64,000 bases of DNA from Candidatus Latescibacterota bacterium (lineage in GTDB: Bacteria; Latescibacterota; UBA2968; GCA-2709665). The notes below the pieces were generated by a model that saw only the letters and a program-made list of their open reading frames with translations, was not told where the DNA came from and did not search any database. The position numbers and the translations under genes are program-made. Positions 4,058-46,176 of the stretch are shown piece after piece; the stretch's first letter is position 1; each line of letters begins with the position of its first letter. The stretch lies in contig OZ241917.1 of NCBI GenBank assembly GCA_965203805.1, forward strand, positions 2,848,001 through 2,912,000, given 5' to 3'.

Positions 4058-4445
4058 ACTCTTCTGAACATCAGCCAGGGCGCACTCCCTTCTTTTGCAT
4101 GCAATCAATCTATGATATCGAAATGATATTATCATACGATATCACGCCCCGCAGGTCAAGCGTAATCCGCTTGCCGCCTTCGAAACAACGGGCATCGACG
4201 GGATTCGGCGCAGGTGCTGCCGCTCCATCGTCGAGTTCCTCACAAGCTGCTTTAGAATTTCCAGTGAGGGAGACGACAACATACTGATTGGCCATCCTCA
4301 GGCGAACTTGATGCACGGCTCTGGCCAGACGTTCATCCGTGCGCTCCATACCAAGCGGCATTGAGCGGGCTGACATCGCGGGGCAGGCCGCCGCGTTAAT
4401 GATTTTGTCGACACCGTGTCGAAGTCGAGATCGGCCGGCAGCGGT

Positions 4446-5270
4446 CTACAGTTTCAGGAACAGCCCGACTTCCCAGACAGGGGCATCGAGCAGGTTGTGG
4501 CTTCGCGTGAACCTCGAAATGCCGGCGGTAATTCCCGCGTTGGGAGAAACATGGAAATCGATCTGGGATCCAAAGGACAGGTACTCGAGATCGTTGCGCG
4601 GGTGAAACTCATCGTCTGCTCTGTCAAGGGCTTCGACCCCGCGGAGCCAGACCGAGACGTCTATTCGCTCGGCGATCGTATATCCAGCCTGCAGACTATA
4701 TCGAAACTCGTCCGCGTAATTGTCATCGCGATTGTCACTGCTCTTTCGGTTGTTGTATCCGATCTCACCTATCAGATAGGTAGGTGCGGGATAGAGCGAA
4801 TGGCCTACTTGAAGGGAAACATGTTGATTGAATTCGCCGTCGCCTGTCCAGAGGACGATATCCCCCCCCGATTCGCCCAGCGGTAATCCTGCCATGGCCT
4901 GCAGACTGACCACCGTTGGTCCCTTTGTCAGAATCCGGATCCTGACACCTGCGTCCCCATCGCCAACACCGGTCGTTGAATCGAACCCTTCGGCGTCCAC
5001 GCCGAAGTGCGTATAGACCGGCATGTAGCCCACCAGCGTCACCCGGTCAGTCACGCCGAATTCACCGTAAAGACTTGTCGTATAGCCGCTCACGGTCGGG
5101 ATCTCGGTCTTCGATCCATTCGCGACGAAAAGTGACTCGGCGCTGATTACCTGTTGGCTGAGTTTGAAATACCCCTTACCCTTCGGCTGCGTCCATCCGC
5201 CCGCGTGGGCGATGGAGAAATCGAAACTCATCACGCCCGTGAACAACGCGGCAAGAACAAACCTGTTCAC
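4446..5270 (-). CDS. Exported, probable outer-membrane beta-barrel protein
   Basis: Signal peptide (AHA), GGWTQPKGKGYFKL start, alternating beta-strand pattern, C-terminal aromatic strand; co-oriented with the DM13-containing gene. Confidence 0.6.
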   Translation of the reverse strand: MNRFVLAALFTGVMSFDFSIAHAGGWTQPKGKGYFKLSQQVISAESLFVANGSKTEIPTVSGYTTSLYGEFGVTDRVTLVGYMPVYTHFGVDAEGFDSTTGVGDGDAGVRIRILTKGPTVVSLQAMAGLPLGESGGDIVLWTGDGEFNQHVSLQVGHSLYPAPTYLIGEIGYNNRKSSDNRDDNYADEFRYSLQAGYTIAERIDVSVWLRGVEALDRADDEFHPRNDLEYLSFGSQIDFHVSPNAGITAGISRFTRSHNLLDAPVWEVGLFLKL

Positions 5271-5288
5271 GTAATACTCCTTTGCTTA

Positions 5289-7544: not shown

Positions 7545-7786
7545 GGCAGGCGCGTCCTGTTGTAATGGTTCGGGTCTGTAAAGCTTTGTTCGTGTTGCCG
7601 TCCGACGCTCCGCTCCCGTCCGTCGTCTACGCGGTCATGATCTGGATGATGTCGTTGCTGGTGACCGCGCCCATGAACTTATCCGAAACCCTGCAATCAT
7701 CAGAATGGGGGTATCGGGTGAGAAACCAAACGCTGCGCCAGCTTCGTCATTGCGTTTTCCTCACTGGCAGATTGTAGAGGCAAGGC

Positions 7787-18469: not shown

Positions 18470-20020
18470 ATGACCAGACGCAGACTGCCCATCGGCATTC
18501 AGACCTTCCGCAAAATTCGGGAGGACGACTGCTACTACGTCGATAAGACCGCCTACATCCGGAGGTTGCTCGACGAGGGTACTCATTACTTCCTATCGCG
18601 TCCTCGGCGCTTTGGCAAGAGCCTGTTTTTAGACACGATCAAGGAGGTGTTCGAGGGCAACGAGCCGCTGTTTGCCGGGCTGGCCATCCACGACCAGTGG
18701 GATTGGTCGGTGCGCCATCCGGTGCTGCGGCTCGACTTCAGCAGCGGCGCCTACCAGGGGCCGGACGACTTGCAAAAGGAAGTGGCGGCGCAATTGAACA
18801 CCCTGGAGGACGAGGCGGAGATCGTCTCGCGCGACGACGACACCGCTTCGGCTCGCTTCCGCCGCTTGATGAAGGTGCTGCACGAGCGAAGTGGTCAGCG
18901 CGTTGCCGTGCTGATTGACGAATACGACAAGCCTATTTTGGATGCGCTGGATACGCCGGAGGTCGCCCGTGCCAACCGCGACTTTCTACGCGGCCTGTAT
19001 TCGACCGTGAAGTTTGCCGACGCCCACGTCCGGCTCACGTTCATCACAGGGGTGAGCAAGTTCTCCAAGGTCAGCTTGTTTTCCGGCCTCAACAATCTCA
19101 AGGACATCACCCTGGACCCGCGCTATTCGGCTCTGTGCGGCTACACCGAGGCAGACCTGGATACGGTGTTCTCGCCGGAGTTGCCCGGCCTGGACCGGGA
19201 GCGGATCCGCGACTGGTACAACGGCTACCGGTGGCGGGGCGACGAGAAGGTGTACAACCCCTTCGACATCCTGCTGCTGTTCGACAGCCGCGAGTTCAAA
19301 GCCTATTGGTTCGAGACCGGGACGCCGACGTTCCTGATCGAAATGCTGCTCGAGCGCCGCGTCAGTTCCTTAGAACTCGGCGCGATGGAGGGCAGCGACG
19401 AACTCCTCTCGACCTTTGACGTCGATGACGTCGCCACGGAGGCCCTGCTGTTCCAGACAGGCTACCTGACGATCACCGACGAGGAGGACCTGGGCGGCGA
19501 GCCCGTCTATCGCCTGGACTATCCCAACCGCGAGGTGCGCCAGAGCCTGAACCGCAGTCTGCTGCGCTACCTGGTGCGGGATGCGACGCGGCAGCGGGCC
19601 AATAGCACACGGTTGTACCGGCTGTTGGAAGCCAACGACTTCGAGGGACTCAAGACACTTTTCCACGCTTTCTTCGCCAGCATCCCCTACGAGTGGTACA
19701 CCAACAACGACGTTGCCAGGTACGAGGGCTACTACGCCAGCGTTTTCTATTCCTATTTCGCGGCGCTGGGTCTCAATATCACCGTAGAAGACAGCAGCAG
19801 TCACGGGCGCGTGGATATGGCTGTACACTTCAACGACAACGTCTATCTGTTCGAGTTCAAAGTGGTAGAGTTGGCGTCTGATGGGGCTGCGATGGCGCAA
19901 TTGCGGGAGAAGGGATACGCGGACAAATACCGCGATTTGGGGCAGCCGATTCACCTGATCGGGGTCGAGTTCAGCAAGGATACCCGCAATATCACGGCCT
20001 TCGAGGCGGCCCGTGCGTGA
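18470..20020 (+). CDS. AAA-ATPase-like plus C-terminal PD-(D/E)XK nuclease protein, copy 1
   Basis: LPIGIQTF, YYVDKT, RPRRFGKS Walker A, LIDEYDKP Walker B, GRVD...FEFK nuclease motif. Confidence 0.9.
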   Translation: MTRRRLPIGIQTFRKIREDDCYYVDKTAYIRRLLDEGTHYFLSRPRRFGKSLFLDTIKEVFEGNEPLFAGLAIHDQWDWSVRHPVLRLDFSSGAYQGPDDLQKEVAAQLNTLEDEAEIVSRDDDTASARFRRLMKVLHERSGQRVAVLIDEYDKPILDALDTPEVARANRDFLRGLYSTVKFADAHVRLTFITGVSKFSKVSLFSGLNNLKDITLDPRYSALCGYTEADLDTVFSPELPGLDRERIRDWYNGYRWRGDEKVYNPFDILLLFDSREFKAYWFETGTPTFLIEMLLERRVSSLELGAMEGSDELLSTFDVDDVATEALLFQTGYLTITDEEDLGGEPVYRLDYPNREVRQSLNRSLLRYLVRDATRQRANSTRLYRLLEANDFEGLKTLFHAFFASIPYEWYTNNDVARYEGYYASVFYSYFAALGLNITVEDSSSHGRVDMAVHFNDNVYLFEFKVVELASDGAAMAQLREKGYADKYRDLGQPIHLIGVEFSKDTRNITAFEAARA

Positions 20021-22753: not shown

Positions 22754-22844
22754 CGAAGACCGCTGGGGAGTTTAAAACAGCTTCTCAAGGAAACAAAAGC
22801 GTGAAGCAGGAATTACATCACCCAATGCCTGGAGGAAATTGCCG

Positions 22845-24392
22845 GTGACCAGACGCAGACTCCCCATCGGCATGCAGACCTTCCGCGAACTCCGAGAGCA
22901 GGACTGCTATTACGTCGACAAGACCGCACATATCCGGCGGCTGCTCGACGAGGGCAAGCACTATTTCCTGTCGCGCCCTCGTCGCTTCGGCAAAAGCCTG
23001 TTTCTCGACACGCTCAAGGAACTGTTCGAGGGCAACCAACCTCTGTTTCAGGGGCTGGACATCCACGGTTACTGGGACTGGTCCATACGTTGCCCCGTCC
23101 TGCGTCTGAGCTTCGGGAGCGGGCACTTCAAGGAGCCGGGCCACTTGCATACGAACCTGATGGCCCAATTGGACGCCGTGGAACGAAAGGCAAACGTATC
23201 CTCTGAGTACGTCACCGGTCCCGAACGGTTGCGGCATCTCCTGGAAGTGCTGCACGGCAAGACCGGTCGGCCCGTCGCAGTGCTGATCGACGAGTATGAC
23301 AAGCCGATCCTGGACGCCCTGGAGACGCCGGACGTCGCCCGCGCAAACCGCGACTATCTGCGGGGCCTCTATGCAGTCGTCAAGGACAGCGACACCGACA
23401 TCCGCTTCAGCCTTATTACCGGGGTAAGCAAGTTCTCCAGAGTCAGCCTGTTCTCCGGCCTCAACAACCTGGTCGACATCACCCTGGACGCGCGCCATTC
23501 GTCCATCTGCGGGTACACCGACGAGGATATCGACACCGTTTTCGCGCCGGAGTTGCCCGGCCTCAACCGGGAGGAGATCCGCTACTGGTACAACGGCTAC
23601 AGTTGGCGGGGCGATACAAGGGTATATAACCCCTTCGACATACTGCTGCTGTTTCGCAACCGAGAGTTCGCCGCCTATTGGTTTGAGACGGGCACGCCGA
23701 CGTTTCTGGTCGAAACGCTGTTCAAGCGCCAGGTGAGTTCTCTGGCTCTGGACGAAATGCTGGGCAGCAGCGATCTGCTGTCGACGTTCGACGTGGACGA
23801 CGTGGCCACCGAGGCGCTTTTGTTCCAGACCGGGTATCTCACAATAACAGAAGAGGAAGATCTCGGCGGCGAACCTCACTACCGTCTGGGCTATCCCAAC
23901 CGGGAAGTGCGGCAGAGCCTGAATCGGAGCCTGCTGCGCTACCTGGTGAAGGACGCGTCTCGGCAGATGGCGAACAGCGTCCGGCTTTACCGGCTGCTGG
24001 AGGCCAACGACTTCGCCGGGCTCGAAACGCTGTTCCAGGCGTTCTTTGCCAGCATTCCCTATGAGTGGTACACGAACAACGACATTGCCAACTACGAGGG
24101 CTACTACGCCAGCGTGTTTTATTCCTATTTCGCGGCACTGGGGCTGGACGTCACGGTGGAGGACGCCAGCAGTCACGGCCGGCTGGACATGGCGGTTCAT
24201 TTTAACGACAACGTCTATCTGTTCGAATTCAAGGTCGTCGAGATGACCTCGGAGGGCGCGGCGATGGCGCAATTGAAGGCGAAACGCTACGCTGACAAGT
24301 ACCGTGATCCGGGACAGGCGATCCACCTGATCGGCGTGGAGTTCAGTAAGGAGGCCCGCAACCTGACGGCGTTCGAGGTGGAGCGGGTTTGA
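22845..24392 (+). CDS. AAA-ATPase-like plus PD-(D/E)XK nuclease protein, copy 2
   Basis: Same motifs as copy 1; GGAGG RBS upstream of GTG at 22845. Confidence 0.9.
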   Translation: MTRRRLPIGMQTFRELREQDCYYVDKTAHIRRLLDEGKHYFLSRPRRFGKSLFLDTLKELFEGNQPLFQGLDIHGYWDWSIRCPVLRLSFGSGHFKEPGHLHTNLMAQLDAVERKANVSSEYVTGPERLRHLLEVLHGKTGRPVAVLIDEYDKPILDALETPDVARANRDYLRGLYAVVKDSDTDIRFSLITGVSKFSRVSLFSGLNNLVDITLDARHSSICGYTDEDIDTVFAPELPGLNREEIRYWYNGYSWRGDTRVYNPFDILLLFRNREFAAYWFETGTPTFLVETLFKRQVSSLALDEMLGSSDLLSTFDVDDVATEALLFQTGYLTITEEEDLGGEPHYRLGYPNREVRQSLNRSLLRYLVKDASRQMANSVRLYRLLEANDFAGLETLFQAFFASIPYEWYTNNDIANYEGYYASVFYSYFAALGLDVTVEDASSHGRLDMAVHFNDNVYLFEFKVVEMTSEGAAMAQLKAKRYADKYRDPGQAIHLIGVEFSKEARNLTAFEVERV

Positions 24393-24681
24393 GCATCCGG
24401 ATGAGCATGAGGGGATGTGGCTGGATGGCCGTGAGGACGTTTCTCCGGCGGAAGTTATTACCGGAAGCGGTAAATAGTTTATATTTCATGCCTCTGCGAC
24501 AGCGCGACGGTGTCAACTATGCGCCCCGTGCCGCTCCGTGAACCCGTCGAAGTGCGTCGAAGGATTGGCGAAGAGCTGATGTAGACTATTTTCTTCTTCC
24601 CGTAGTATACGATTTCCAGCGCCTGCCTGCCGGTAGGCACGGCACGGGCGCCGGACGTTTCCGCGTCTGAGAAAGAAAAAA

Positions 24682-24951
24682 ATGGCTAGGGACAACGACG
24701 TAGAGCAGCCTTCGGGAAGCAAGGACAAGCCTGCTCGAACCACTCCTTCGGCGGCCAAACTCAGGCAGATTGTGGGCGCCTCGCCTGCTCCCAGGAATTT
24801 GACGCCGTACGAGGTCGACCTGCTACGGAAGGCCGCACGGGAAACTGCGGAGGTCGTGGACGAAGTCCTTGCAGAAGAAAAAGCGGCTCGAGATCAGGAT
24901 GAAACGCAAGCAACGACGGAAGCAGACGAACAGCAAGAGGAGTCCCGCTAA
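24682..24951 (+). CDS. Small family-A protein copy 1 (PSAAKL..PRNLTPYE.DLLRK)
   Basis: Conserved paralogue family with a conserved leader GCACGGGCGCCGGACGTTTCCGCGTCTGAGAAAGA. Confidence 0.65.
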   Translation: MARDNDVEQPSGSKDKPARTTPSAAKLRQIVGASPAPRNLTPYEVDLLRKAARETAEVVDEVLAEEKAARDQDETQATTEADEQQEESR

Positions 24952-24981
24952 GACGTTTTCCAACAACACACGGGGGGAACC

Positions 24982-25179
24982 ATGAACACCGCAACGCCCG
25001 AAGCACCCTCCGGCGCCGATTTCGAGGCACGCCTTGCGCGCCTGGAAGGTACCGTTGAGCAGCTTAGCCAGCGCATCGCTGCCCTCGAAACCCGCGTCGA
25101 TCAGGGTTTCCGCTGGATGATCGGCATTCAATTAACCATGTTCATCACGCTTGGCACGCTCATTCTCTTCAAACTATAA
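24982..25179 (+). CDS. Small family-B coiled-coil protein with C-terminal TM helix, copy 1
   Basis: FEARLARLEG heptads then FRWMIGIQ..LGTLILFKL; G-rich RBS. Confidence 0.7.
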   Translation: MNTATPEAPSGADFEARLARLEGTVEQLSQRIAALETRVDQGFRWMIGIQLTMFITLGTLILFKL

Positions 25180-25228
25180 CCCTCGCACGGGCGCCGGACG
25201 TTTCCGCGTCTGAGAAAGATAAGAAAAA

Positions 25229-25498
25229 ATGGCCAGGGACAACGACGCGGAACAGCCTTCAGGGCGTCGGAACAAGCCTGCTCGAACCACTCCTTCGGCG
25301 GCCAAGCTCAGGCAGATTTTGGGCGACTCGCCTTCTCCCAGGAATTTGACGCCGTACGAGGTCGACCTGCTACGGAAGGCCGCACGGGAAACTGCGGAGG
25401 TCGTGGACGAAGTCCTTGCAGAAGAAAAAGCGGCTCGAGATCAGGATGAAACGCAAGCAACGATGGAAGCAGACGATCAGCGCGAAGAACCCCGCTAA
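25229..25498 (+). CDS. Family-A protein copy 2
   Basis: Close paralogue of 24682..24951. Confidence 0.65.
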   Translation: MARDNDAEQPSGRRNKPARTTPSAAKLRQILGDSPSPRNLTPYEVDLLRKAARETAEVVDEVLAEEKAARDQDETQATMEADDQREEPR

Positions 25499-25531
25499 GC
25501 GGTTTTCCAACAACACACGGAGGCAGCCAAC

Positions 25532-25765
25532 ATGAACACCGCAACGCCCGATTTCGACGCCCGCCTCTCCCGCGTCGAGGGAACCGTCGAGCAGCTTAGC
25601 CAGCGCATGGCAAGCCTGGAAACCCGCATGGGCAACCTGGAAACCCGCATGGATCAGGGTTTCCGCGAAGTCAACGCACGCATGGATAGCGGGTTCCGTT
25701 GGATTGTCGGTATTCAGTTTACCACGCTGGTTGCGCTTGGCACGCTCATTCTCTTCAAACTCTAA
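25532..25765 (+). CDS. Family-B protein copy 2
   Basis: Paralogue with a 21-bp (heptad) tandem duplication; GGAGG RBS. Confidence 0.7.
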   Translation: MNTATPDFDARLSRVEGTVEQLSQRMASLETRMGNLETRMDQGFREVNARMDSGFRWIVGIQFTTLVALGTLILFKL

Positions 25766-25833
25766 CCCTCGCCTGCCTGCCGGTAGGCACGGCACGGGCG
25801 CCGGACGTTTCCGCGTCTGAGAAAGATAAGAAA

Positions 25834-26103
25834 ATGGCCAGGGACAACGACGCGGTGCAGCGTTCAGGGCGTCGGAACAAACACACTTGGATCAGTCCTT
25901 CGGCAGCCAAACTCAAGCAGATATTGGGCGACTCGCCCGCACCCCGGAATCTGACGCCGTACGAGATCGAGCTGTTGCGGAAAAGCAAGAAGGAGATGGC
26001 CCAGGTCCTGCGCGAAGTCCTTGCGGAGAAAAAAGTGGCTCGATACCAGGATGAAACGCGAGCAACGATGGAAGGAGAGGAGCGGCGCGAAGACTCCCGC
26101 TAA
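25834..26103 (+). CDS. Family-A protein copy 3
   Basis: ATG at 25834 (MARDNDAVQRSG); 89 aa. Confidence 0.65.
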   Translation: MARDNDAVQRSGRRNKHTWISPSAAKLKQILGDSPAPRNLTPYEIELLRKSKKEMAQVLREVLAEKKVARYQDETRATMEGEERREDSR

Positions 26104-26302
26104 GAAGCTACTTGGAAAATAACATCAGAAACTACAAAACACGCGAAAAAAACGAAAAATCCGTGGCTTAAATCAATTGCCACAAGAGGCCTGCCTGCAG
26201 CGCCTGTCTGCGTGCCTGCATGCAGCGCAGGGCACTGCGCAGGCAGGCGTGCCACACGCACAGGCAGGCGCTGGTAGGACGGCGAATAAGGATATGGTAG
26301 CA

Positions 26303-26587
26303 ATGCACGCAATAATCGAACAACACCGCGCCGGGATTCTCGCCCTCGCTGAACGGCACGGTATTACCGACGTACGTGTGTTCGGGTCTATGGCGAGAGG
26401 CGACGCCGATGATTCCGGTGACGTCGATCTGCTGGTGTCGCTGCCGCCCGATAAAACGGGCCTCGCGCTCGGCGCGCTGTTGATGGACGTGCGGGACCTT
26501 CTGCAACGCCGCGTAGAAGTCGTCACTGAAAAGAGTCTTCATCCGGCCCTCCGCGAGCGCGTTCTGAACGAGGCGCAGCCGTTATGA
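26303..26587 (+). CDS. Minimal nucleotidyltransferase (MNT/MntA-type antitoxin), copy 1
   Basis: VRVFGSMARGD...DVDLLV motif, ~94 aa; partner HEPN gene reduced to ATGAAACC. Confidence 0.88.
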   Translation: MHAIIEQHRAGILALAERHGITDVRVFGSMARGDADDSGDVDLLVSLPPDKTGLALGALLMDVRDLLQRRVEVVTEKSLHPALRERVLNEAQPL

Positions 26588-26671
26588 AACCCGAAAGTTG
26601 TAATCCGAATCCGTTGTGAATACTAAGCGAAAATTAGACGATTTCCAACCCAACACGCGGAGGCAACGAAC

Positions 26672-26884
26672 ATGAACTCCGCGACGCCCAATTTCGAGGC
26701 GCGCCTTGCGCGCCTGGTGGGTATCGTTGAACAGCTTAGCCAGCGCATGGGCAACCTGGAAACCCGCATGGATCAGGGTTTCCGCGAAGTCAACGCACGC
26801 ATGGATAGCGGGTTCCGTTGGATTGTCGGTATTCAGTTTACTACGCTGGTTGCGCTTGGCACGCTCATCCTCTTCAAACTCTGA
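26672..26884 (+). CDS. Family-B protein copy 3
   Basis: Paralogue of 25532..25765. Confidence 0.7.
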   Translation: MNSATPNFEARLARLVGIVEQLSQRMGNLETRMDQGFREVNARMDSGFRWIVGIQFTTLVALGTLILFKL

Positions 26885-26952
26885 CCCTCGCCTGTCTGCC
26901 GGTAGGCACGGCACGGGCGCCGGACGTTTCCGCGTCTGAGAAAGATAAGAAA

Positions 26953-27222
26953 ATGGCCAGGGACAACGACGCGGTGCAGCGTTCAGGGCGTCGGAACAAA
27001 CACACTTGGATCAGTCCTTCGGCAGCCAAACTCAAGCAGATATTGGGCGACTCGCCCGCGCCCCGGAATCTGACGCCGTACGAGATCGAGCTGTTGCGGA
27101 AAAGCAAGAAGGAGATGGCCCAGGTCCTGCGCGAAGTCCTTGCGGAGAAAAAAGTGGCTCGATACCAGGATGAAACGCGAGCAACGATGGAAGGAGAGGA
27201 GCGGCGCGAAGACTCCCGCTAA
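26953..27222 (+). CDS. Family-A protein copy 4
   Basis: Same protein as copy 3, 1119 bp downstream. Confidence 0.65.
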   Translation: MARDNDAVQRSGRRNKHTWISPSAAKLKQILGDSPAPRNLTPYEIELLRKSKKEMAQVLREVLAEKKVARYQDETRATMEGEERREDSR

Positions 27223-27396
27223 GAAGCTACTTGGAAAATAACATCAGAAACTACAAAACACGCGAAAAAAACGAAAAATCCGTGGCTTAAATCAATTGCC
27301 ACAAGAGGCCTGCATGCAGCGCAGGGCACTGCGCAGGCAGGCGTGCCACACGCACAGGCAGGCGCTGGTTGGACGGCGCGTAAGAATACGGTAGCA

Positions 27397-27681
27397 ATGC
27401 ACGCAATCATCGAACAACACCGCGCCGGGATTCTCGCCCTCGCTGAACGCCATGGTATTACCGACGTACGTGTGTTCGGGTCTATGGCGAGGGGCGACGC
27501 CGATGATTCCGGTGACGTCGATCTGCTGGTGTCGTTGCCGCCCGATAAAACGGGCCTCGCGCTCGGCGCACTGTTGATGGACGTGCGAGACCTTCTGCAA
27601 CGCCGCGTGGAAGTCGTCACTGAGAAGAGTCTTCATCCGGCCCTCCGTGAGCGCGTGCTGAAAGAGGCACAGCCTTTATGA
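27397..27681 (+). CDS. Minimal nucleotidyltransferase (MNT), copy 2
   Basis: Near-identical to 26303..26587. Confidence 0.88.
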   Translation: MHAIIEQHRAGILALAERHGITDVRVFGSMARGDADDSGDVDLLVSLPPDKTGLALGALLMDVRDLLQRRVEVVTEKSLHPALRERVLKEAQPL

Positions 27682-27842
27682 AACCGGACGCGCAGTCCGA
27701 TAGAGTATTGCTGGAACACATACGCGAGTGCATTGAACGCATTCGGGAATACACCGGCAGCAGGCGAGTTTCGTTCTACGGTTCACCTTGGTGTCCGAAA
27801 TCGGATGTAACCCTCACAGGAGCAATTGGGAAAGCAACGTAG
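27678..27842 (+). pseudogene. Truncated HEPN/DUF86 (HepT-like) toxin
   Basis: MKPDAQSDRVLLEHIRECIERIREYT..SFYGS resembles the DUF86 N-terminus; similarity ends near 27792 and the RxxxxH motif is absent. Confidence 0.72.
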
Positions 27843-27958
27843 GAAATTTGATGGACGAAGCGTTTGGGAAGAATGTCATCACAGGGTCGGAGGAGTCCTG
27901 ATCCTGAAGGGGAACCGGCGAGTTCCTCGAAGTACGTCTCCACCTGAAAGAGACAAGT

Positions 27959-28266
27959 GTGAAAACGATCGAACAGGTCGGGCTCAACTGACCACAGGCG
28001 ATTTTGACTTTTCTCGCCACGCCTTCAAGCGAGCGGTTGAAAGAAACATCAGCGAACAGGAGATCAGACAGGCAGGATTGTGGGCAACAATCATTGAGGA
28101 ATATCCTGGCGATAAGTACGCCCCGAGTTGCCTGCTTTTGGGTTTCACCCAATCGGGTAGACCTCTGCACGTCCACGTTTCGCTTGCCGACACGGAGGAA
28201 GTGAGAATCATTACACTATATGTGCCAGATCCGGATAAGTGGATCGAATACTATAGAAGGAGGTGA
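27959..28266 (+). pseudogene. DUF4258 toxin-like gene, frameshifted near codon 7
   Basis: GTG AAA ACG ATC GAA CAG GTC stops at TGA 27989; FSRHAFKR..IIEEYPGDKY..SCLLLG..RPLHV..IITLY.PD continues in another frame. Confidence 0.7.
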
Positions 28267-28268
28267 GC

Positions 28269-28499
28269 ATGTTTACTTGCCCGGTCTGCCATTCCCAGGA
28301 AAGCCGTGAGGAGTTGGTCGACGAGGTGTTTCGCGTTGATGGGCGTTATGCCCTGGTCGAGGGCATTCCGGCTCTCGTGTGCGTCCGGTGTGGCGAACAG
28401 GCCTTTAGTCGCGAGACGACGGAGAAGGTGCGATTGATGGTCCACGGAGAGGCTGAATCAACAACGTCCATACCCATGCAGGTCTTTGACTTCGCCTGA
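28269..28499 (+). CDS. YgiT-type zinc finger protein (MqsA-like antitoxin)
   Basis: CPVC...IPALVCVRCGE, immediately after the DUF4258-like gene. Confidence 0.85.
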   Translation: MFTCPVCHSQESREELVDEVFRVDGRYALVEGIPALVCVRCGEQAFSRETTEKVRLMVHGEAESTTSIPMQVFDFA

Positions 28500-28803
28500 C
28501 GGATTTAGACTGCCATTTGGGTGAGAGGATGTTGTCCCTCTCGGCAGTCCGCCGATCGAAAATAGGCCACTCGAATCGGACTCATCGTATATGGCCCCGG
28601 CCATAGGTACATCTCTAACGCGGATTTGCTCAGCCCGAATCAAATAGACGGAAGTGAACGTCTGAGCCCGATTGACGTTGCAATCACTCCCCCTTGAGGG
28701 GGAGTCGCCTGCCTGCCGAGCAGGTCTCGGCGCAGGCAGGCCGCCATTGGCGGCGGTGGGGGGTTACCTACTCTGAGCACGGCGTCTGAGAAAGATGAAG
28801 AAA

Positions 28804-29037
28804 ATGGCCAGGGACAACGACGCGGTGCAGCGTTCAGGGCGTCGGGACAAACACACTTGGATCAGTCCTTCGGCAGCCAAACTCAAGCAGATATTTGGCG
28901 ACTCGCCCACGCCCCGGAATCTGACGCCGTACGAGATCGACCTGCTGCGGAAGGCTGCGAAGGAAACTGCGGAGGTCGTGAGCGAAGTCCCGGCGAAGGA
29001 AAGAGTGGCTGGAGAGCAGGATGAAACCAGTCGATAG
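28804..29037 (+). CDS. Family-A protein copy 5
   Basis: MARDNDAVQRSG..NLTPYEIDLLRK, shorter C-terminus. Confidence 0.6.
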   Translation: MARDNDAVQRSGRRDKHTWISPSAAKLKQIFGDSPTPRNLTPYEIDLLRKAAKETAEVVSEVPAKERVAGEQDETSR

Positions 29038-29113
29038 GCTGTAAATTGATCTGGATCTATTGCGAATTATGTGCGGATATTATGGACGTTTAGTCATGAA
29101 CAGGAGGACGTCG

Positions 29114-29422
29114 ATGACCAACATGCGTTGGATGGAGGCCATCGAACAATGGCGCAGCCTCCCGGCGGAGGAACGTCGACGCCGGCATCTGGACGCGATT
29201 CCCCGTCACGTGGCGAATTCGATGGCGATGGAGGGCGAGCCGGTGGACGAGGCCTGGATTCGGGAAAGACTCGCCCGCGCCCCTGAATTTGACGCCGTAC
29301 GAGATCAAGCTGCTGCAGTGCAAGAAGGAGATCGCCCAATAGCAGTTGTTCCCCGGACGAAGAGCAATCGCCTGTTACTGCCAACTACTGCAATGAGGCC
29401 GGGCCTTGCGGCCCGGAAGTGA
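29114..29422 (+). CDS. Small VbhA-like (Fic antitoxin motif) protein whose 3' end is replaced by a family-A fragment
   Basis: AGGAGG RBS; ANSMAMEG fits (S/T)xxxE(G/N); from GACTCGCCCGC (29268) the DNA is family-A sequence read out of frame. Confidence 0.5.
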   Translation: MTNMRWMEAIEQWRSLPAEERRRRHLDAIPRHVANSMAMEGEPVDEAWIRERLARAPEFDAVRDQAAAVQEGDRPIAVVPRTKSNRLLLPTTAMRPGLAARK

Positions 29423-29496
29423 CACGCTCTACGCGTACATAACCGAAAACTTCTCTACTTCAATGAGGCCTAGAAACATGATAGCGTCCAGGAGAT
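29387..29496 (-). CRISPR. Single-spacer CRISPR-like mini-array (type I-G-like repeats)
   Basis: Minus strand: degenerate repeat ending GGCCTCATTGAAGT, 36-nt spacer, then ACTTCCGGGCCGCAAGGCCCGGCCTCATTGCAGT; the main repeat ends GGCCTCATTGAAGC. Confidence 0.82.
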
Positions 29497-29511
29497 GGTT
29501 CAAATTAAAAC

Positions 29512-29540
29512 TTGACAGAAGTATTTGGTTATGATATTTT
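29512..29540 (+). promoter_or_regulatory. Sigma70 promoter upstream of the cas3 stub
   Basis: TTGACA-17 nt-TATTTT with an AT-rich upstream tract. Confidence 0.7.
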
Positions 29541-29633
29541 AATTTTTAAGCTTGATTCAGTCGATGCGATGCGGGCAAGCCCAATAGATGTACTACCTCG
29601 AGGGTTAAATCAAACAAAAAAGGAACACGCAGT

Positions 29634-29816
29634 ATGTCGTTTGAGCAATTCTTCTCCACAGCGTTCGGCAAAGACCTCAGTCCTTACGACTATCAGCACG
29701 CACTCGCAAAACAGGCATGGCCAGACGCACTCATCGCTCCGACAGGCCTCGGCAAGACCGACGTGTCGTGTTGTCTATTGTCTGCCCTTGAGTACACTCG
29801 TCGAGCATACGGGTAG
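29634..29816 (+). pseudogene. cas3: 5' fragment of a type I-G cas3
   Basis: MSFEQFF..PYDYQ..LA...LIAPTGLGKT (Q motif plus Walker A), then unrelated sequence and a stop; AAGGA RBS. Confidence 0.78.
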
Positions 29817-29821
29817 GCAAT

Positions 29822-30000
29822 AGGCCGACTCGCCCGGCTGCCGGAGTTTGACGTATTACGAAATCGATCTGACGCGGAAAGGCAAGAAGCAGATAGCCCC
29901 GGTCGCGGGCGAAGTCGTTGCGAAAAAAATTGTGTCTGGAGATCAGGATGAAACACAAGCAACGATGGAAGCAGACGAACAGCGCGAGGAACTCCGCTAA
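29822..30000 (+). pseudogene. Degenerate family-A fragment, followed by an ORF-D tail and an MNT 5' stub (to ~30110)
   Basis: GACTCGCCC..TTGACGTATTACGAAATCGATCTG..GAACTCCGCTAA, then GGATCGAGACCATCAG..ATGCACTCAATAATCGAACAACAC. Confidence 0.75.
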
Positions 30001-30174
30001 GGATCGAGACCATCAGCGCGCCCTGCTCATCAAGCGCTGGCTGGACGGGCAGTAAGGATACGGTAGCAATGCACTCAATAATCGAACAACACAGCGCCGA
30101 GATTCTCGCACAGAATACAAAAAGAAAACGGGCTAATACGCATTTGGACGTTGGCGGTTTTGAGGGAGAACACC

Positions 30175-30366
30175 ATGGAATCTATTCAATCTCGCGTATA
30201 CGAATATCTGAAGCGCCGGAAAAACGGCGCTTCCGTGCTGGACATGGCCACAGCCCTGAACTTAGACTGCAAACAGGTACGCGGCGGCATTGACCGATTG
30301 AGAGACCAAGGCATCGAGATCGACAACGAACCCCCGCGAAGTAAGAATTTCAAGCTTCGCAGGTGA
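30175..30366 (+). CDS. Small winged-HTH-like protein
   Basis: GGGAG RBS; QSRVYEYLK...SVLDMATALNL..KQVRGGIDRLRDQG. Confidence 0.55.
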   Translation: MESIQSRVYEYLKRRKNGASVLDMATALNLDCKQVRGGIDRLRDQGIEIDNEPPRSKNFKLRR

Positions 30367-30382
30367 GCCCATAGCTACTTAA

Positions 30383-32063
30383 CCCCAATTATTCACAAAA
30401 AAGGTAGTTTCCATACCCAAGTCATTGTATTATATTGTGGTTACGCAAATAACCATAACACAATGAAACAGGAGGAAACTACCGTGGAAGTTCAAGATAA
30501 ACAAGCCGCACTTCCTTTCGCAAGTATTTCTGGCAAGCAGGTAGAAGCGGTCTTCGATGGCGGTGTGCTCACCAGCGATATGGGTTTGATGCTGCTTCGA
30601 GAGGTGGAGTCCAAAAACGGCATCCTGTCTCGGATCGTCGAGGCGTTGCCGGACCGTCGGCATCCCAGTTACGTGGATCACCCGATGGCGGATCTGATCA
30701 GCCAGCGTGTCTTTCAGATCGCGTGCGCGTATGAGGATGCGAACGATTGCAATTTGCTGCGCTTTGACCCTGCGTTCAAGGCGGCCTGTGATCGGTTGCC
30801 GATATCAGGGGCGCCGTTGGCCAGCCAACCCACGATGAGTCGATTGGAAAACGGCATTCGTCGCCGGGACTTATATCGCATTGCCGAGGCCCTTGTGGAC
30901 GGATTCATCGCGTCCTACGATAGGCCTCCCGAAGGGGTCGTTCTGGATATCGATGACACCGATGACGAGGTTCACGGCAAGCAACAGTTGTCGTTTTTCA
31001 ATGGCTATTACAATGAACGCTGTTATTGTCCCTTGCACATTTATGAAGGCCGGACAGGAAGACTGATCACGACGCTTTTGCGTCCGGGCGCCCGTCCTAC
31101 CGGCAAACAGATTGTCAGCATTCTCAAGCGACTGGTGAAAATGCTTCGTGAGGCGTGGCCGGACGTGGGTATCTATTTACGTGGCGATGGCCATTTTTCC
31201 TGTCCTGAGGTCCACGACTTTTGCGACGAGCAAGCGGTGTATTTTACGCTGGGACAGACGGGCAATGCCAGGCTTGCACAACGGGGACACGCGTTGATCG
31301 AGCAGGCAAAGGCCCGGTATCGGGAAACCGGACAGCCCGTGCAGTTATTTGCCAGTTTCGATTACCAGGCAACGACTTGGGCCGTGCCAAGACGCATCAT
31401 CTACAAAGCTGAAATCACCGCCTCGGGGCAAGCCAATACACGCTTTGTCGTCACCAACCTGAAAAGTAGCCAGCCCTCATTCATCTACAAAACCGTCTAT
31501 TGTGCGCGCGGCAGGATGGAAAACTTCATCAAGAATCACAAAACCTTTCTCCATTCCGATCGCACCTCCTGCCACACCTTCGAAGCCAATCACTTCCGTC
31601 TCCTGCTGCATAGTGCCGCTTATGTCTTGATGCACACCCTTACCGAAAAAGGACTCCGGACCACCCAATGGACGCACGCCCAGTTTAATACCATTCAGAA
31701 TCGCATCCTCAAAGTCGCAGGGAGCGTGTCCGAACTCAAAACCAAAATCAAACTCCATTTGCCAACCTCATTTCCCTTGAAACACCTCTATGACACCATC
31801 CTCTGTAATTTGGCAATGGCAGTTCCATAACGCCGCTTCACGCAGGTCCCGCCATCCCTTGATCATAGCCGCCAGGTAAGACCAAGGCATCCGTCCGTCC
31901 TCTCAAACCACAAATTCACGAACTCGACACCCCTTGATGCTGACGGCCCAACCAAAATCACTCATCAACCCGCCAACAACACCTCATTCTATTGTTTTCT
32001 CTTCTACAGAACACTTCCTACTTCCAAAAATACTGTTCCGGTCAATTTCATGAATAGGTCGGG
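30383..32063 (+). mobile_element. IS1380 family insertion sequence (1681 bp)
   Basis: Imperfect terminal IRs CCCCAATTATTCACAAAA / CCCGACCTATTCATGAAA (13/18); TTAA duplication at 30379-30382 and 32064-32067. Confidence 0.88.
30463..31830 (+). CDS. IS1380 family DDE transposase
   Basis: FDGG.LTSD.G, YEDANDC..LR.DP, LASQPTMSRLEN, LDIDDTDD, RGDG, Y..RG.MEN.IK. Confidence 0.93.
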   Translation: MKQEETTVEVQDKQAALPFASISGKQVEAVFDGGVLTSDMGLMLLREVESKNGILSRIVEALPDRRHPSYVDHPMADLISQRVFQIACAYEDANDCNLLRFDPAFKAACDRLPISGAPLASQPTMSRLENGIRRRDLYRIAEALVDGFIASYDRPPEGVVLDIDDTDDEVHGKQQLSFFNGYYNERCYCPLHIYEGRTGRLITTLLRPGARPTGKQIVSILKRLVKMLREAWPDVGIYLRGDGHFSCPEVHDFCDEQAVYFTLGQTGNARLAQRGHALIEQAKARYRETGQPVQLFASFDYQATTWAVPRRIIYKAEITASGQANTRFVVTNLKSSQPSFIYKTVYCARGRMENFIKNHKTFLHSDRTSCHTFEANHFRLLLHSAAYVLMHTLTEKGLRTTQWTHAQFNTIQNRILKVAGSVSELKTKIKLHLPTSFPLKHLYDTILCNLAMAVP

Positions 32064-32151
32064 TTAAATGATCCCTGCAAATCCAAAAGCGTATCAGCCC
32101 GTAAAGAATCCTGATGCTTACGTGGACACCTGAAGACAAAAGGAGGAACGA

Positions 32152-38819
<6,668 letters not shown>

Positions 38820-38926
38820 CATTCAGTCTTTACAAATGAAGCGAAGACATCTACACTGATTCATCTGGCATTGGCGGCGGCCTCTACGCATTGTGGAGGT
38901 CAGAACACCCAAAGAGCTAATCCAAT

Positions 38927-39010
38927 ATGGCCACGAGTAACAAGCGGTTCGACGCCGTCCGGATGATGCGCTCAATCCGAGACGCGTTGAGCGAACAAAT
39001 CGAGACATGA
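38927..39010 (+). pseudogene. Frameshifted copy of the family-E small protein (see 48385)
   Basis: MATSNKRFDAVRMMRSIRDALSEQIET then stop; MNFEEE continues in another frame, matching MTFEEE of 48385..48597. Confidence 0.7.
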
Positions 39011-39318
39011 ATTTCGAGGAAGAGTGGGAGGCCCGGGAGCGCGAGAAGAGGCGCGCCTCGCTCAGCCCGATTGAGCGCGAGATTGAGGAGATTCTCGACG
39101 CCCGGCGGGACAAGAACATGCCGGAGATCACCGCGATCATGCAAGAGGTCAGCAGCGGCCGCTGGGCCGACGCGGCCAGGATCGCAGTCGCACGGTGGCT
39201 CGAGATCAGGATGAGACGTGAGCAACGGTGGAAGGAAAGGAGCGCCGCGAAGAATCCCGCTAAGGATCGCGACCATCAGCGTACCCTGCTCATCAAGCGC
39301 TGGCTGGACGGCGAGTAA
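39007..39318 (+). pseudogene. ORF D: probable C-terminal remnant of a larger gene, resembling the tail of type III-B Cmr6
   Basis: ASLSPIEREIEE..GRW..WKE..AKNPAKDRDHQRTL.I..WL recalled from Cmr6 C-termini (not database-checked); followed by an MNT 5' stub at 39332. Confidence 0.45.
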
Positions 39319-39407
39319 GGATACGGTCGCAATGCACGCAATCATCGAACAACACCGCGTCGGGATTCTCGCCCGCAACCGGGTGTAACTCTCACAGGAG
39401 CAATTGC

Positions 39408-39638
39408 GTGAATTCGGACCACGACACGGGACATCCGTCGGGAAGGGATGACCGGACCGCTGGACTTACGCCTTCGGTAGCCGAACTCAAGCGCCTAATC
39501 GGCCCCTCGCCCACGCCCCGTCATCTGACGCCGTACGAGATCGACCTGCTGCGGAAAAGCAAGCAGGAAGTCGATCAGGTATCGGGCGAAGTCTTTGCGG
39601 GGAAAACAGTGGCTGGAGACAAGGATGAAAACAGTTGA
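39408..39638 (+). CDS. Diverged family-A protein
   Basis: TPSVAELKRLIGPSPTPRHLTPYEIDLLRKSKQE; GTG start after AGGAG. Confidence 0.55.
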   Translation: MNSDHDTGHPSGRDDRTAGLTPSVAELKRLIGPSPTPRHLTPYEIDLLRKSKQEVDQVSGEVFAGKTVAGDKDENS

Positions 39639-39671
39639 TAGGCTGTAAATGGATCCCGAAGCTGTTGAAGC

Positions 39672-39972
39672 ATGGCAATTGAAGTTAAGGGCGGAAAAAA
39701 CGTCGGTATTCGTGACATGCGGGCATTGCATGGTGTGATGGAAAACGACCTGGCAATGATTTATCCCGCAACCGCTCGGAGACCGCAAAGAACAGAATTT
39801 CCGGCGCGAAATGGCGCAAGCCGGAGACGTGCGGATCGGACAAGCGACGTATCCTGCGCTCCAGATGCTGACCGTGGCGGACATATTCGAGGGCAAACGA
39901 TTCGATACGCCGGGAGCGGTAGGGCGTGGACTCAATCAACCACAACTCAGGTTAGAGAACCGGGCAGACTGA
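39672..39972 (+). pseudogene. Mrr-like restriction-endonuclease-domain fragment, copy 1 (frameshifted)
   Basis: IEVKGGKNVGIRDMRALHGV, internal deletion, then sequence parallel to 40380..40676. Confidence 0.65.
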
Positions 39973-39987
39973 GCGAAAGGAAGACAT

Positions 39988-40266
39988 ATGCCACCGAATC
40001 GCGCGCAAGTTAAGCAGTTCATCGAATCCGAATTTCCCAAGTTGGAACTGAAACCACTTCCGAAGCAGCCAGGGTGGTCCGTCTGGCAGGGTTTCGTGCG
40101 TATTGTCCGGTTCCGACAGGTAAACCCAAACAGGAAAGTAGAGTTCAAGCCCGTTGTTTCTGCCAAAAAAGAGAAAAACAGAGGGCTGACGATTGAATTA
40201 ACATCTGACTGGAAGAACCAGATTCGCAAAGCAATTGAACGGGAGTTAAGCCTTTGCGGGGAATAG
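39988..40266 (+). CDS. Hypothetical small protein
   Basis: AAGGAAG RBS, 92 aa, lower GC. Confidence 0.6.
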   Translation: MPPNRAQVKQFIESEFPKLELKPLPKQPGWSVWQGFVRIVRFRQVNPNRKVEFKPVVSAKKEKNRGLTIELTSDWKNQIRKAIERELSLCGE

Positions 40267-40379
40267 CATCCCGAAAGGCCAAGCCCATATCTTATAATCC
40301 CGTTTCCAAAAATGGGCAGTCGAGGAAGTGGACGGCTTTGTCACGACGAAACGGACGGCGGACGCCAGATCTGCAAAGC

Positions 40380-40676
40380 ATGGCAATCGAAGTCAAGGGC
40401 GGAAAGAACATCGGTATCCGCGACATGCGGGCGTTGCATGGCGTGGTCGAAAACGACGTGGCCATGATGGGCGGATTGATTGTCCTGGAGCCGCTCGGAG
40501 ACCGCAAAGAGCAAAATTTCCGGCGCGAAATGGCGCAGTCCGGAGACGTGCGGATCGGACAAGCGGCGTATCCGGTACTCCAGATGTTGACCGTGGCGGA
40601 CATATTCGACGGCAAGCGGTTCAATACGCCCGGAGCGGTCGGGCGCGGACTCAAGCAGCCGCAACTCAGATTGTAA
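40380..40676 (+). pseudogene. Mrr-like domain fragment, copy 2 (C-terminus of an MTase-endonuclease type gene)
   Basis: IEVKGG ExK-type motif, MGGLIVLE, YP.LQMLTV.DIFDGKRF; N-terminal part missing. Confidence 0.65.
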
Positions 40677-40721
40677 GGTCGAATCGGACTAAACCCGAGA
40701 CCACTATTGAGGGGAGAGCTT

Positions 40722-41000
40722 ATGGTGCCGAAGAGTTTGGAGAATTGTATTGCGGTCATAAAGACAATGCGCAAAACAAACATGAGTTACAAAGATGCGT
40801 GTGACGAAGTGTTGCGCGCGAAGAACGATGGGGTGGTTCTTGGAACCATTCGGGATTCTTGTACTCGATTTGGGAAGGGTGGGAAAAATCGGTTGAACGT
40901 TTCCGAAGTAGAGGATCAAGTCCAGACGGGCGAAATCGTCAACACTTTAAAGCGAGAATTTCCAAACCATACGGACTATATTGACTCCCATTTGGGATGA
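40722..41000 (+). CDS. Hypothetical small protein
   Basis: GGGGAG RBS, ATG at 40722, 92 aa. Confidence 0.6.
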   Translation: MVPKSLENCIAVIKTMRKTNMSYKDACDEVLRAKNDGVVLGTIRDSCTRFGKGGKNRLNVSEVEDQVQTGEIVNTLKREFPNHTDYIDSHLG

Positions 41001-41023
41001 ATCTCTATCGGAAAAGAGGCGAA

Positions 41024-41167
41024 ATGAAGGGATTTGATTGGTGGCACTACCCGCTTATCGCCGTCCCAGTAGCGATTGTTGTATTCATTTCTTGGCTGGC
41101 CTCCGCTGAACGCGCCGAACGCAAACGGGGGAAACGGTCCAAGAAAACCAACACCACAAGCCCATAA
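41024..41167 (+). CDS. 47-aa single-TM protein
   Basis: GAGG RBS; MKGFDWWHYPLIAVPVAIVVFISWLAS followed by a basic tail (hand-translated). Confidence 0.5.
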   Translation: MKGFDWWHYPLIAVPVAIVVFISWLASAERAERKRGKRSKKTNTTSP

Positions 41168-41183
41168 CTTATAATCCCGAAAC

Positions 41184-41400
41184 CGACAACGCGAAGCAGC
41201 GTTCAGGGACTCGGGACAAGCACACTCGGATCAGTCCTTCGGCGGCCAAGCTCAAGCAGATATTGGGCGACTCGCCCGTCTGCCGGAACCTGACGCCGTA
41301 CGAGATCGAACTGCTTCGGAAAAGCAAGAAGGAGATGGCCCAGGTCTTGCGCGAAGTGCTTGTGGAGAAGAAGGACGCGTCGCAGAGAAAGCCCGATTGA
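41184..41400 (+). pseudogene. Family-A fragment without a start codon, directly upstream of cas3 operon 2
   Basis: ..CAGCGTTCAGGG..CCTTCGGCGGCCAAGCTCAAGCAGATATTGGGCGACTCGCCC..CTGACGCCGTACGAGATCGAA. Confidence 0.8.
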
Positions 41401-41431
41401 AAGCGATGATGAACGCATAAGAGTGATGATT

Positions 41432-44208: not shown

Positions 44209-44209
<1 letters not shown>
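41432..44209 (+). CDS. cas3: Type I-G Cas3 with C-terminal HD domain, operon 2
   Basis: PFEWQ, IPTGLGKT, VDRRAVVDQ, DEAH, QRLGRVNRRG, LHDEGK, YRHE, HHGWARP, LRAAD. Confidence 0.93.
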
Positions 44210-46168
<1,959 letters not shown>

Positions 46169-46176
46169 GTTGAACT

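Follow-up and report, generated by a model that had tools for sequence, protein, structure and literature searches.

A degenerate type I-G mini-CRISPR with a promoter-matching spacer in a Latescibacterota genome: a probable CreR-type regulator in a rearranged cas locus

CreR elements are CRISPR mini-arrays with degenerate repeats, the spacer of which has a match proximal to the protospacer adjacent motif (PAM) at the promoter of the effector cas genes, and they have been proposed to provide autorepression by the Cascade complex that senses the load of CRISPR RNAs (crRNAs) as well as anti-CRISPRs (10.1101/2023.03.10.532045). In the parts of that work available to us, as with all the published sources cited here, the CreR experiments cover types I-B, I-E and V-A, not I-G, and creA-like elements of I-U, as I-G was formerly called, were identified manually (Figure S7). 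Shmakov et al. list 235 I-G loci in their Table 1, 46% with a repeat-like sequence and 4% with a mini-array, no I-G example being described in the parts of the text examined; their validated I-F1 mini-array has mismatches at every sixth base and represses in a manner that needs Cascade, with Cas3 being dispensable (PMC10120712). Here an orphan pair of type I-G-like repeats with a single spacer is described from a 64,000-nucleotide (nt) stretch of a Candidatus Latescibacterota bacterium genome (assembly GCA_965203805.1, contig OZ241917.1, positions 2,848,001 to 2,912,000 of the forward strand), hereafter the window, in which positions are counted from its first letter. We consider it a probable CreR-type, that is Cas-regulating, mini-CRISPR of a type I-G system.

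Like the CreR cases, the element consists of two degenerate repeats and a spacer, has a PAM-flanked promoter target and no obvious toxin; unlike them, the window copy belongs to type I-G, its operon is displaced by insertions and there is a mismatch in the seed. With the regulatory mini-arrays of Shmakov et al. (PMC10120712) it shares a standalone repeat pair within a cas locus and a spacer partially complementary to a cas promoter. The literature search revealed no experimental I-G case and no description of the cas7g-first lineage discussed below, while the supplements of the CreR and mini-array papers may list such loci. The class is known and its I-G/I-U members have been predicted before, and the element of the window is a well-supported further member in a decaying context.

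Anatomy of the mini-array and its match to the adjacent promoter

Two degenerate type I-G repeats, psiR1 and psiR2, surround one spacer on the minus strand at 29496-29387. The preliminary description of this DNA, made from the letters and their open reading frames (ORFs), had reported two such repeats 24 kb from the main array with a different stem and a near-identical handle, and both coordinates and letters proved to be correct. The features concerned are the following:

29457-29496, minus strand: psiR1, the upstream degenerate repeat, with a 6-bp stem, a 12-nt loop, CCTC and the 8-nt handle ATTGAAGT at 29464-29457
29421-29456, minus strand: psi-spacer of 36 nt, positions 1-19 of which (29456-29438) are the targeting part
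29387-29420, minus strand: psiR2, the downstream degenerate repeat, with a 7-bp GC stem, a GCAA loop, CCTC and the degenerate handle ATTGCAGT
29395-29464, minus strand: predicted mature crRNA-like RNA of 70 nt, comprising the 8-nt handle, the 36-nt spacer and 26 nt of psiR2 with its hairpin and CCTC, by the Csb2 rule
29512-29533, plus strand: TTG PAM (29512-29514) and 19-nt partial protospacer (29515-29533), from sequence match and shuffles
29512-29540, plus strand: predicted sigma-70-type promoter facing the cas genes, with TTGACA (29512-29517), a 17-nt gap, TATTTT (29535-29540) and TG before the -10 box; 10 of 12 consensus positions
29536-29564, minus strand: candidate promoter of the mini-array, TCGACT, 17 nt, TAAAAT; 9 of 12, by consensus match only
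29541-29633, plus strand: 5′ untranslated region (UTR), alignable with the operon 5′ UTR of genome G001
53779-55879, plus strand: main CRISPR array with 29 repeats of 36 nt and a period of 72-76

The folding energies are -8.7 kcal/mol for psiR1 and -16.2 kcal/mol for psiR2 (RNAfold). The main array, located 24.3 kb from the mini-array, is the only one of the window; its 8-bp stem differs from those of the mini-array and its tail is the same, namely CCTC followed by ATTGAAGC, to which the tail of psiR1 is an exact match. When the 13-nt repeat tail was searched for with up to two mismatches, 32 matches were obtained in the window, consisting of the 29 array copies, the two psi-repeats and one unrelated site with two mismatches, against a mean of 1.75 expected from shuffles; the tails of the psi-repeats have 0 and 1 mismatch, are both on the minus strand and lie 70 nt apart. 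In the complete genome of 5.87 Mb a 14-nt degenerate tail occurs 29 times in the array and twice in the mini-array, with no matches for the reversed control. The Rfam model CRISPR-DR16 matches psiR2 on the minus strand with 18.7 bits (E 0.17), below the gathering score, and the array repeats on the plus strand with 22.8-29.3 bits, also below it. The repeat pair is not due to chance and its strand is clear.

It is not an ordinary array either: the psi-repeats are of unequal length (40 vs 34 nt) with different stems and loops, the only spacer has its match in neighbouring host DNA, and spacer position is conserved across genomes; the element is found 2.6 kb upstream of cas7g, apart from the array. 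No second mini-array was found before the cas3 gene at 41360, which belongs to another cas locus of the window (locus B), by scans with the tail motif and with the covariance model introduced below. In the main array spacers are duplicated at two places, 54517-54661 and 55542-55687, each of which holds a pair of identical repeat-spacer units next to one another.

In type I-G the PAM is TTN, Csb2 cuts 4 nt 3′ of the repeat hairpin, leaving an 8-nt 5′ handle, and remains on the 3′ hairpin, and every sixth guide base is kinked out and unpaired (10.1101/2022.08.08.503147). Both psi-repeats keep the published order of hairpin, 4 nt and 8-nt handle, and since this layout matches the Csb2 geometry, a 70-nt mature RNA running from 29464 to 29395 is predicted, the Csb2 cut in psiR2 being expected between 29395 and 29394. 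Such an RNA would be like a canonical I-G crRNA, as described in the available part of that source, in its hairpin, 4-nt segment, 8-nt 5′ handle, TTN PAM, unpaired sixth bases and Csb2 on the 3′ hairpin, and unlike it in having a single fixed spacer with a host DNA match of about 19 nt and repeats that differ from each other and from the array repeat.

Positions 1-19 of the spacer match the plus strand at 29515-29533 in 16 of 19 positions, with mismatches at 2, 9 and 12 and TTG in front, and the distal positions 20-36 match in 3 of 17 (hand count), all of which agrees with what had been described before. Apart from the spacer itself, there are five sites in the genome with 16/19 matches, and TTN precedes only one of them, 29515-29533, located 58 nt from the handle; no better target was found elsewhere by a whole-genome scan. 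None of 5000 shuffled spacers equalled the match of the window (13 of the 15 non-sixth positions, a TTN PAM, opposite strand, 552 nt searched). With the sixth bases set aside, the true guide mismatches in the window are those at positions 2 and 9. The plus-strand predicted promoter is the best promoter-like match of the region and contains the site, the target spanning its -35 to -10 interval. The -10 boxes of this promoter and of the candidate minus-strand promoter overlap.

Related mini-arrays and spacer-promoter covariation

The region 29380-29765 was used as a query against 101 related genomes, which yielded a mini-array in G001, a genome of the same genus, and in G072, as well as a solo psiR2 in G100. 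A search with the stem-plus-tail pattern of psiR2 over the genomes of 185,579 species returned seven loci, namely those of G001 and G072 and those of G101 (Latescibacterota), G102 (Nitrospirales), G103 (Gammaproteobacteria), G104 (Alphaproteobacteria) and G105 (Rhodospirillaceae). The metagenome scan gave four matches, all duplicates of G105 (three) or G103 (one), and the psiR2 motif had no matches in viral contigs. In G098 a mini-array with a different psiR2 stem is located upstream of cas7g. The covariance model R1, built from nine mini-arrays, was applied to 151 genomes of the phylum and contributed two more loci, in G074 (53 bits) and G069 (45.3 bits), each lying just upstream of a cas7g-first operon; its other matches, scoring 43-45 bits (three in G090, two in G098, one each in G154 and G057, and a second one in G074), resemble array units. 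In total, there are 11 related mini-arrays including that of the window, distributed among Latescibacterota, Nitrospirales and Proteobacteria.

The genes cas7g-csb2-cas3g-Cas3-extension have the mini-array directly upstream, on the opposite strand, in G001, G101, G102, G104 and G105, and an array with the same repeat tail is found a few kb beyond. No mini-array was detected within about 2 kb directly upstream of cas3g in G101-G105, and those sought there sit about 3.1 kb upstream of it, before cas7g. The mini-array of G103 is 113 kb away from the nearest cas3g of its contig, and that of G072 adjoins decayed cas3 fragments with 82-92% amino-acid identity to the cas3 of G057. All eight intact relatives (G001, G101, G102, G104, G105, G098, G074 and G069) have the mini-array on the opposite strand, directly upstream of a cas7g-first I-G operon. 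The Cas3-extension marker scored above the cut-off in 12 of 168 genomes of the phylum, a survey independent of the psiR2 stem, and at least six of these 12 carry the element, which is therefore frequent in one I-G sub-lineage, unlike the I-G tally of Shmakov et al. with its 4% of mini-arrays. The loci of G074 and G069 are composite and consist of the mini-array, cas7g, csb2, an ORF of about 600 amino acids (aa), a block of RAMP-like ORFs, a full cas3g and the Cas3-extension gene; the N-terminus of the product of the 600-aa ORF resembles that of the G101 cas3g, and the RAMP-like call on the neighbouring ORFs was made by eye from their N-termini.

The psiR2 stem is identical in eight genomes (the window, G001 and G100-G105) and has one G-U change in G072, although this constancy is partly a matter of ascertainment, as genomes were searched for with that very stem; another version of psiR2 is present in G098, G074 and G069. 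The array repeats of the genomes sharing psiR2 have five different stems.

For each mini-array about 550 nt upstream were scanned with its own first 18 spacer bases. The matches are:

Window: 15/18, mismatches at 2, 9 and 12, PAM TTG
G001: 15/18, mismatches at 6, 12 and 18, PAM TTC
G101: 14/18, mismatches at 6, 12, 17 and 18, PAM TTA
G102: 15/18, mismatches at 12, 16 and 18, PAM TTT
G104: 13/18, mismatches at 4, 12, 13, 15 and 18, PAM TTA
G105: 14/18, mismatches at 6, 9, 12 and 18, PAM TTA
G098: 14/18, mismatches at 9, 12, 15 and 18, PAM TTC
G074: positions 1-11 pair except 6, PAM TTG, read by eye
G069: 15/18, mismatches at 12, 13 and 18, PAM TTT, read by eye

The guide matches its own TTN-flanked site in or beside the divergent promoter in nine of the 11 mini-arrays, seven of them by script and two by eye. 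At six loci scanned by script the best match was in every case on the opposite strand, at a distance of 76-151 nt from the boundary of the spacer, and the observed score was reached by none of 5000 shuffled spacers; at G098, where the target begins 69 nt from the handle, it was reached by one of 5000. In an 8 × 8 cross-test foreign spacers scored 9-14 on foreign regions. Among the nine matching loci, mismatches are concentrated at positions 6, 12 and 18, and the pairing of G001 at the non-sixth positions is perfect (15/15); a mismatch within positions 1-5 is found only in the window (position 2) and in G104 (position 4). The remaining two mini-arrays, those of G072 and G103, have no target (at most 11/18, with 4998 and 3365 of 5000 shuffles equal), and both are orphans without an adjoining operon. 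Covariation of spacer and promoter in homologous loci had been named beforehand as a check on the regulatory proposal, and it is borne out at every locus except these two orphans.

The targets differ in their placement relative to the predicted promoters. Those of G001 and G101 lie 8-9 nt after the -10 box of promoters with 11/12 consensus positions, at the transcription start; those of the window and G102 extend across the -35 to -10 interval; those of G104 and G105 are just upstream of a TTGACA; and that of G098 is in an AT-rich stretch before a small ORF. The promoter of G001 homologous to that of the window is predicted to drive a winged-helix ORF together with the cas7g operon.

The distal halves of the spacers can form a short hairpin (29421-29437 in the window and the equivalents in the 10 other mini-arrays) of 4-6 bp, the sequence of which differs between loci, with four pairs, 88.9% of cells paired and two pairs changed on both sides; in G074 and G069 it was judged by eye. 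The signal is modest, with 15-25 of 500 shuffles reaching the observed measures, and the distal-spacer hairpin is a suggestive lead only.

Cas loci of the window and their rearrangement

The window carries two cas loci with the signature genes of type I-G, those for Cas3g, Csb1/Cas7g and Csb2 (NCBIfam TIGR02621, TIGR02570 and TIGR02165 above cut-off in both), and the two resident Csb2 proteins are 26% identical. The features between the promoter and the array are:

29634-29762, plus strand: 5′ remnant of a cas3, 43 codons or 129 nt, ending at the GLGKT Walker A motif, with the frame continuing as junk to 29816
29763-30144, no strand assigned: small-ORF cassette debris, from local repeat families and genome comparison
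30175-30366, plus strand: small 63-aa winged-helix-like ORF, 95% identical to the first gene of the regulated operon in G001
30382-32063, plus strand: insertion of an IS1380 insertion sequence (IS), transposase at 30463-31830, between the small ORF and cas7g
32152-38819, plus strand: locus A operon with cas7g (32152-33417), csb2 (33417-35111), cas3g (35077-37893) and a Cas3-extension family gene (37890-38819), NCBIfam above cut-off
41360-44209: cas3g of locus B, followed by cas8g2, cas7g and csb2 (46177-48378), then Cas4g/Cas1g at 51747-53552 and the array

Comparison with G001 revealed extensive synteny. Positions 1-445 of G001 correspond to 29035-29472 of the window at 84% identity and include the left flank, the identical psiR2, the spacer and the psiR1 tail; 578-815 correspond to 30145-30381 at 95%, with the 63-aa winged-helix-like ORF; and 813-7748 correspond to 32064-39022 at 92.8%, with four cas ORFs, all of them open. 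The idea that the RNA had outlived the operon it controlled is not upheld, since the 63-aa ORF and the whole of cas7g-csb2-cas3g-Cas3-extension are retained. The 132 nt of promoter and UTR in G001 correspond to 672 nt in the window (29473-30144), where 29497-29633, that is the promoter and 5′ UTR, is homologous to the region of G001 with a shared -35 context, -10 region and two UTR blocks, the alignment extending over the whole length up to the cas3 ATG. The cas3 fragment, the cassette debris and IS1380 lie within the approximately 2.6 kb between the promoter and cas7g. Three further copies of IS1380 in the genome are 100% identical to that at 30382-32063 and several others are 88-90% identical; because of the three identical copies the insertion is taken as recent, and the element appears to have been recently active.

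The ORF 29634-29816 resembles Cas3g N-termini in its first 43 residues only, and this piece is 83% identical at the DNA level to the start of the intact cas3 in G057, the locus of which is arranged as cas3g-csx17 (split)-cas7g-csb2, followed by type III-A genes. The piece at 29634 is, judging from this similarity, a relic of a third, Csx17-type I-G variant, and the gene described earlier as the neighbouring cas3 is only a 43-codon 5′ piece of a cas3 of a different type.

Several other observations concern the surroundings of these loci. Three I-G variants stand side by side at 29634-48378 with one array and one Cas4/Cas1 gene only. A family of small-ORF cassettes is represented by 8-10 copies at 24600-30110 and 39190-41450 with a conserved core of 25-49 nt; among the copies are a nucleotidyltransferase-domain ORF (26177-26587) and a DUF4258 ORF (27826-28266), giving the appearance of a toxin-antitoxin-style island, and the 94-aa cassette ORF copy at 29060-29341 has no Pfam or NCBIfam match. 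One cassette copy is located directly upstream of the locus B cas3 (about 41186-41400), and a homologue directly upstream of the cas3 of G057. There are three paralogous genes of about 515 aa (18470-20020, 22839-24392 and 49743-51290) with 73-84% DNA identity, one of them inside locus B between csb2 and Cas4/Cas1; the paralogue at 22839-24392 has AAA-ATPase_like and PDDEXK_9 domains. Six tandem 261-nt units, 87-100% identical, are found at 5641-7245 within a 751-aa minus-strand ORF (5289-7544) coding for a repetitive protein. As for the Cas3-extension protein, a role as a large subunit (cf. Cas8g2) is not claimed, the BLASTP match being marginal (E 0.006 over 77 residues).

The proposed circuit and its alternatives

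The anatomy of the mini-array, the significance of its match, the synteny and the spacer-promoter covariation in relatives together point to the autoregulatory logic of CreR/CreA, as was suggested in the preliminary description on the grounds of a type I-G repeat-derived mini-array with partial PAM-proximal pairing to the adjacent divergent promoter. By descent, the mini-array is best assigned to the cas7g-csb2-cas3g-Cas3-extension operon, intact at 32152-38819. We infer transcription, processing, Cascade loading and repression as follows. A short minus-strand transcript would be produced, probably from the promoter with the -10 box overlapping that of the cas promoter, and Csb2 would cut it 4 nt after the psiR1 and psiR2 hairpins, giving a crRNA-like RNA of about 70 nt with an 8-nt handle and a 3′ hairpin. 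Loaded in I-G Cascade, this RNA would recognise the TTG PAM at 29512 and pair through approximately its first 19 nt with 29515-29533, a pairing so short that Cascade should stay on the promoter and obstruct RNA polymerase with Cas3 left unlicensed; such parking of Cascade without Cas3 licensing should be expected by likeness to CreR/CreA and to the I-F1 mini-array. With plenty of free Cascade the cas output would then fall, and it would rise with Cascade occupied by crRNAs or inhibitors, which amounts to negative feedback. As to its present working, the circuit in the window genome is rearranged and probably weakened, because its guide has a mismatch at position 2 and cas7g is 2.6 kb away from the promoter, with an IS in between.

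A number of points weigh against this reading. The mismatch at position 2 falls in the PAM-proximal seed, which is paired perfectly in the other matching loci save G104 (position 4), and binding of the window guide may be poor; the mismatch had been taken earlier as a possible sign of decay, and being unusual among the nine matching loci it does fit weakening or decay. Owing to the approximately 2.6 kb including IS1380 that separate it from cas7g, the promoter may no longer drive the operon, and what follows it immediately is part of a cas3 that belongs to another I-G type. The relic in G072, the spacer seed of which is related (13/19, hand count), is also found beside a decayed Csx17-type cas3, so to speak in the same company, and the module could stem from a lost cas3-first operon. 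Either of the two resident Cascades, with their divergent Csb2 proteins, could load the RNA. Finally, five cas7g-first genomes of the same phylum (G090, G172, G150, G078 and G082) gave no mini-array upstream of cas7g by reading and with the covariance model, and the mini-array is, as far as these genomes indicate, not obligatory for a cas7g-first I-G system.

The strongest competitor, which we nevertheless regard as unlikely, holds that the module originally belonged to a cas3-first operon, now lost, of the Csx17 type of I-G (cas3g-csx17-cas7g-csb2), the cas3 promoter of which it regulated, so that it is now a pure relic and its position before a cas7g-first operon is secondary. It would explain why the promoter of the window runs directly into the first 43 codons of a cas3 of the G057 kind and why the G072 mini-array, with a seed resembling that of the window, lies beside a decayed cas3 of the same lineage, and the target position differs as well, being at -35 to -10 in the window and at the transcription start in G001. 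On the other hand, G001 has the orthologues of psiR2 and of 350 nt of its left flank, the element there heads a cas7g-first operon and pairs at every non-sixth position, the promoter and 5′ UTR of the window align with those of G001 along their entire length, all eight intact mini-array loci are cas7g-first, and G057, the only intact Csx17-type locus examined, has no mini-array in the 17.5 kb read (covariance model). Two histories of recombination fit the segment 29473-30144, and that of a native locus A regulator is favoured over a Csx17-type origin because every intact example is cas7g-first and the sole intact Csx17-type locus examined is without a mini-array.

Far less credible is an addiction or abortive-infection module of the CreTA/CrePA kind, in which a toxin RNA (29545-29633) or the 30175-30366 ORF would be repressed and released upon loss or inhibition of Cascade. 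In other subtypes, toxins under CreA repression are documented, both RNAs and proteins (PMC12737573), and the element is like CreA in its RNA architecture, repression by a partial match and a target between divergent promoters, while, as described in the available part of that source, the toxin RNA or protein partner under the repressed promoter is a defining feature of CreTA/CrePA and was not found in the window. Five of the nine matching loci (the window, G001, G102, G098 and G105) do have a small ORF of about 63-88 aa ahead of cas7g, after the target, but G101 has 28 nt from the target to cas7g and no ORF, and G069 about 85 nt, so that a toxin is not a constant component of the module. The ORF shared by the window and G001 has weak winged-helix matches only (Pfam HTH_39, HTH_11 and RPA_C below cut-off, the BirA N-terminal domain with E 0.008, and phrog_1123 of unknown function), and family searches gave no match to toxin families for it and no match to any family for the small ORFs of G102, G098 and G105. 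Moreover, 29545-29633 aligns as an ordinary 5′ UTR with that of G001, and a cell keeping a toxin under a seed-mismatched guide should be stressed. The earlier suggestion of an autoregulatory or CreTA-like RNA is supported in its CreR-type autoregulatory half and finds no support in its toxin half. The small ORFs of G102, G098 and G105 (about 65-88 aa) have a faint acidic motif ending in E-P in common and bear no relation to the winged-helix-like ORF that the window and G001 share.

That the element is no regulator at all, being either the decayed end of an ordinary array or a self-targeting spacer tolerated through its mismatches, with an accidental promoter match, is hardly conceivable, and the comparative data already contradict it. 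It is true that orphan repeats, like degenerate terminal ones, are common, and the solo psiR2 of G100 and the targetless mini-arrays of G072 and G103 could be seen in this light. Set against this are the sole TTN-flanked 16/19 site and the shuffle results in the window, the nine loci in three phyla, with spacers that differ and yet in each case match the promoter next to them beside TTN, and the concentration of mismatches at 6, 12 and 18 together with a constant position and orientation relative to the operon.

Within the CreR-type interpretation, a more specific version is conceivable, which we find doubtful, namely an I-G CreR lineage with the unchanged psiR2 hairpin and the distal psi-spacer hairpin as built-in features and an RNA that perhaps couples two I-G effectors. 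The psiR2 hairpin, with its 7-bp GC stem and GNRA-type loop constant across three phyla, could offer Csb2 a site of high affinity or of different tuning and so set the terms of competition with crRNAs, and the distal hairpin could act as a physical stop to R-loop extension, a safety catch against Cas3 licensing beside the sequence mismatch. One RNA sharing the handle of the sole array might couple the two co-resident I-G effectors. Judging from the parts of the literature examined, the two hairpin features may not have been described for CreR/CreA.

The CreR-type reading accounts for an otherwise odd orphan repeat pair and presents the window copy as a regulatory module caught mid-decay, its seed mismatched, a piece of foreign cas3 behind it and an IS newly inserted. 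According to the available parts of the literature, Cas autoregulation by degenerate mini-CRISPRs has been shown experimentally in types I-B, I-E, I-F1 and V-A, with only a table count and a supplementary figure for I-G. Loci of the G001 type are better test material than the rearranged copy of the window, and the set of loci as a whole constitutes a natural mutagenesis series for the seed rules of I-G Cascade and for repression resembling CRISPR interference.

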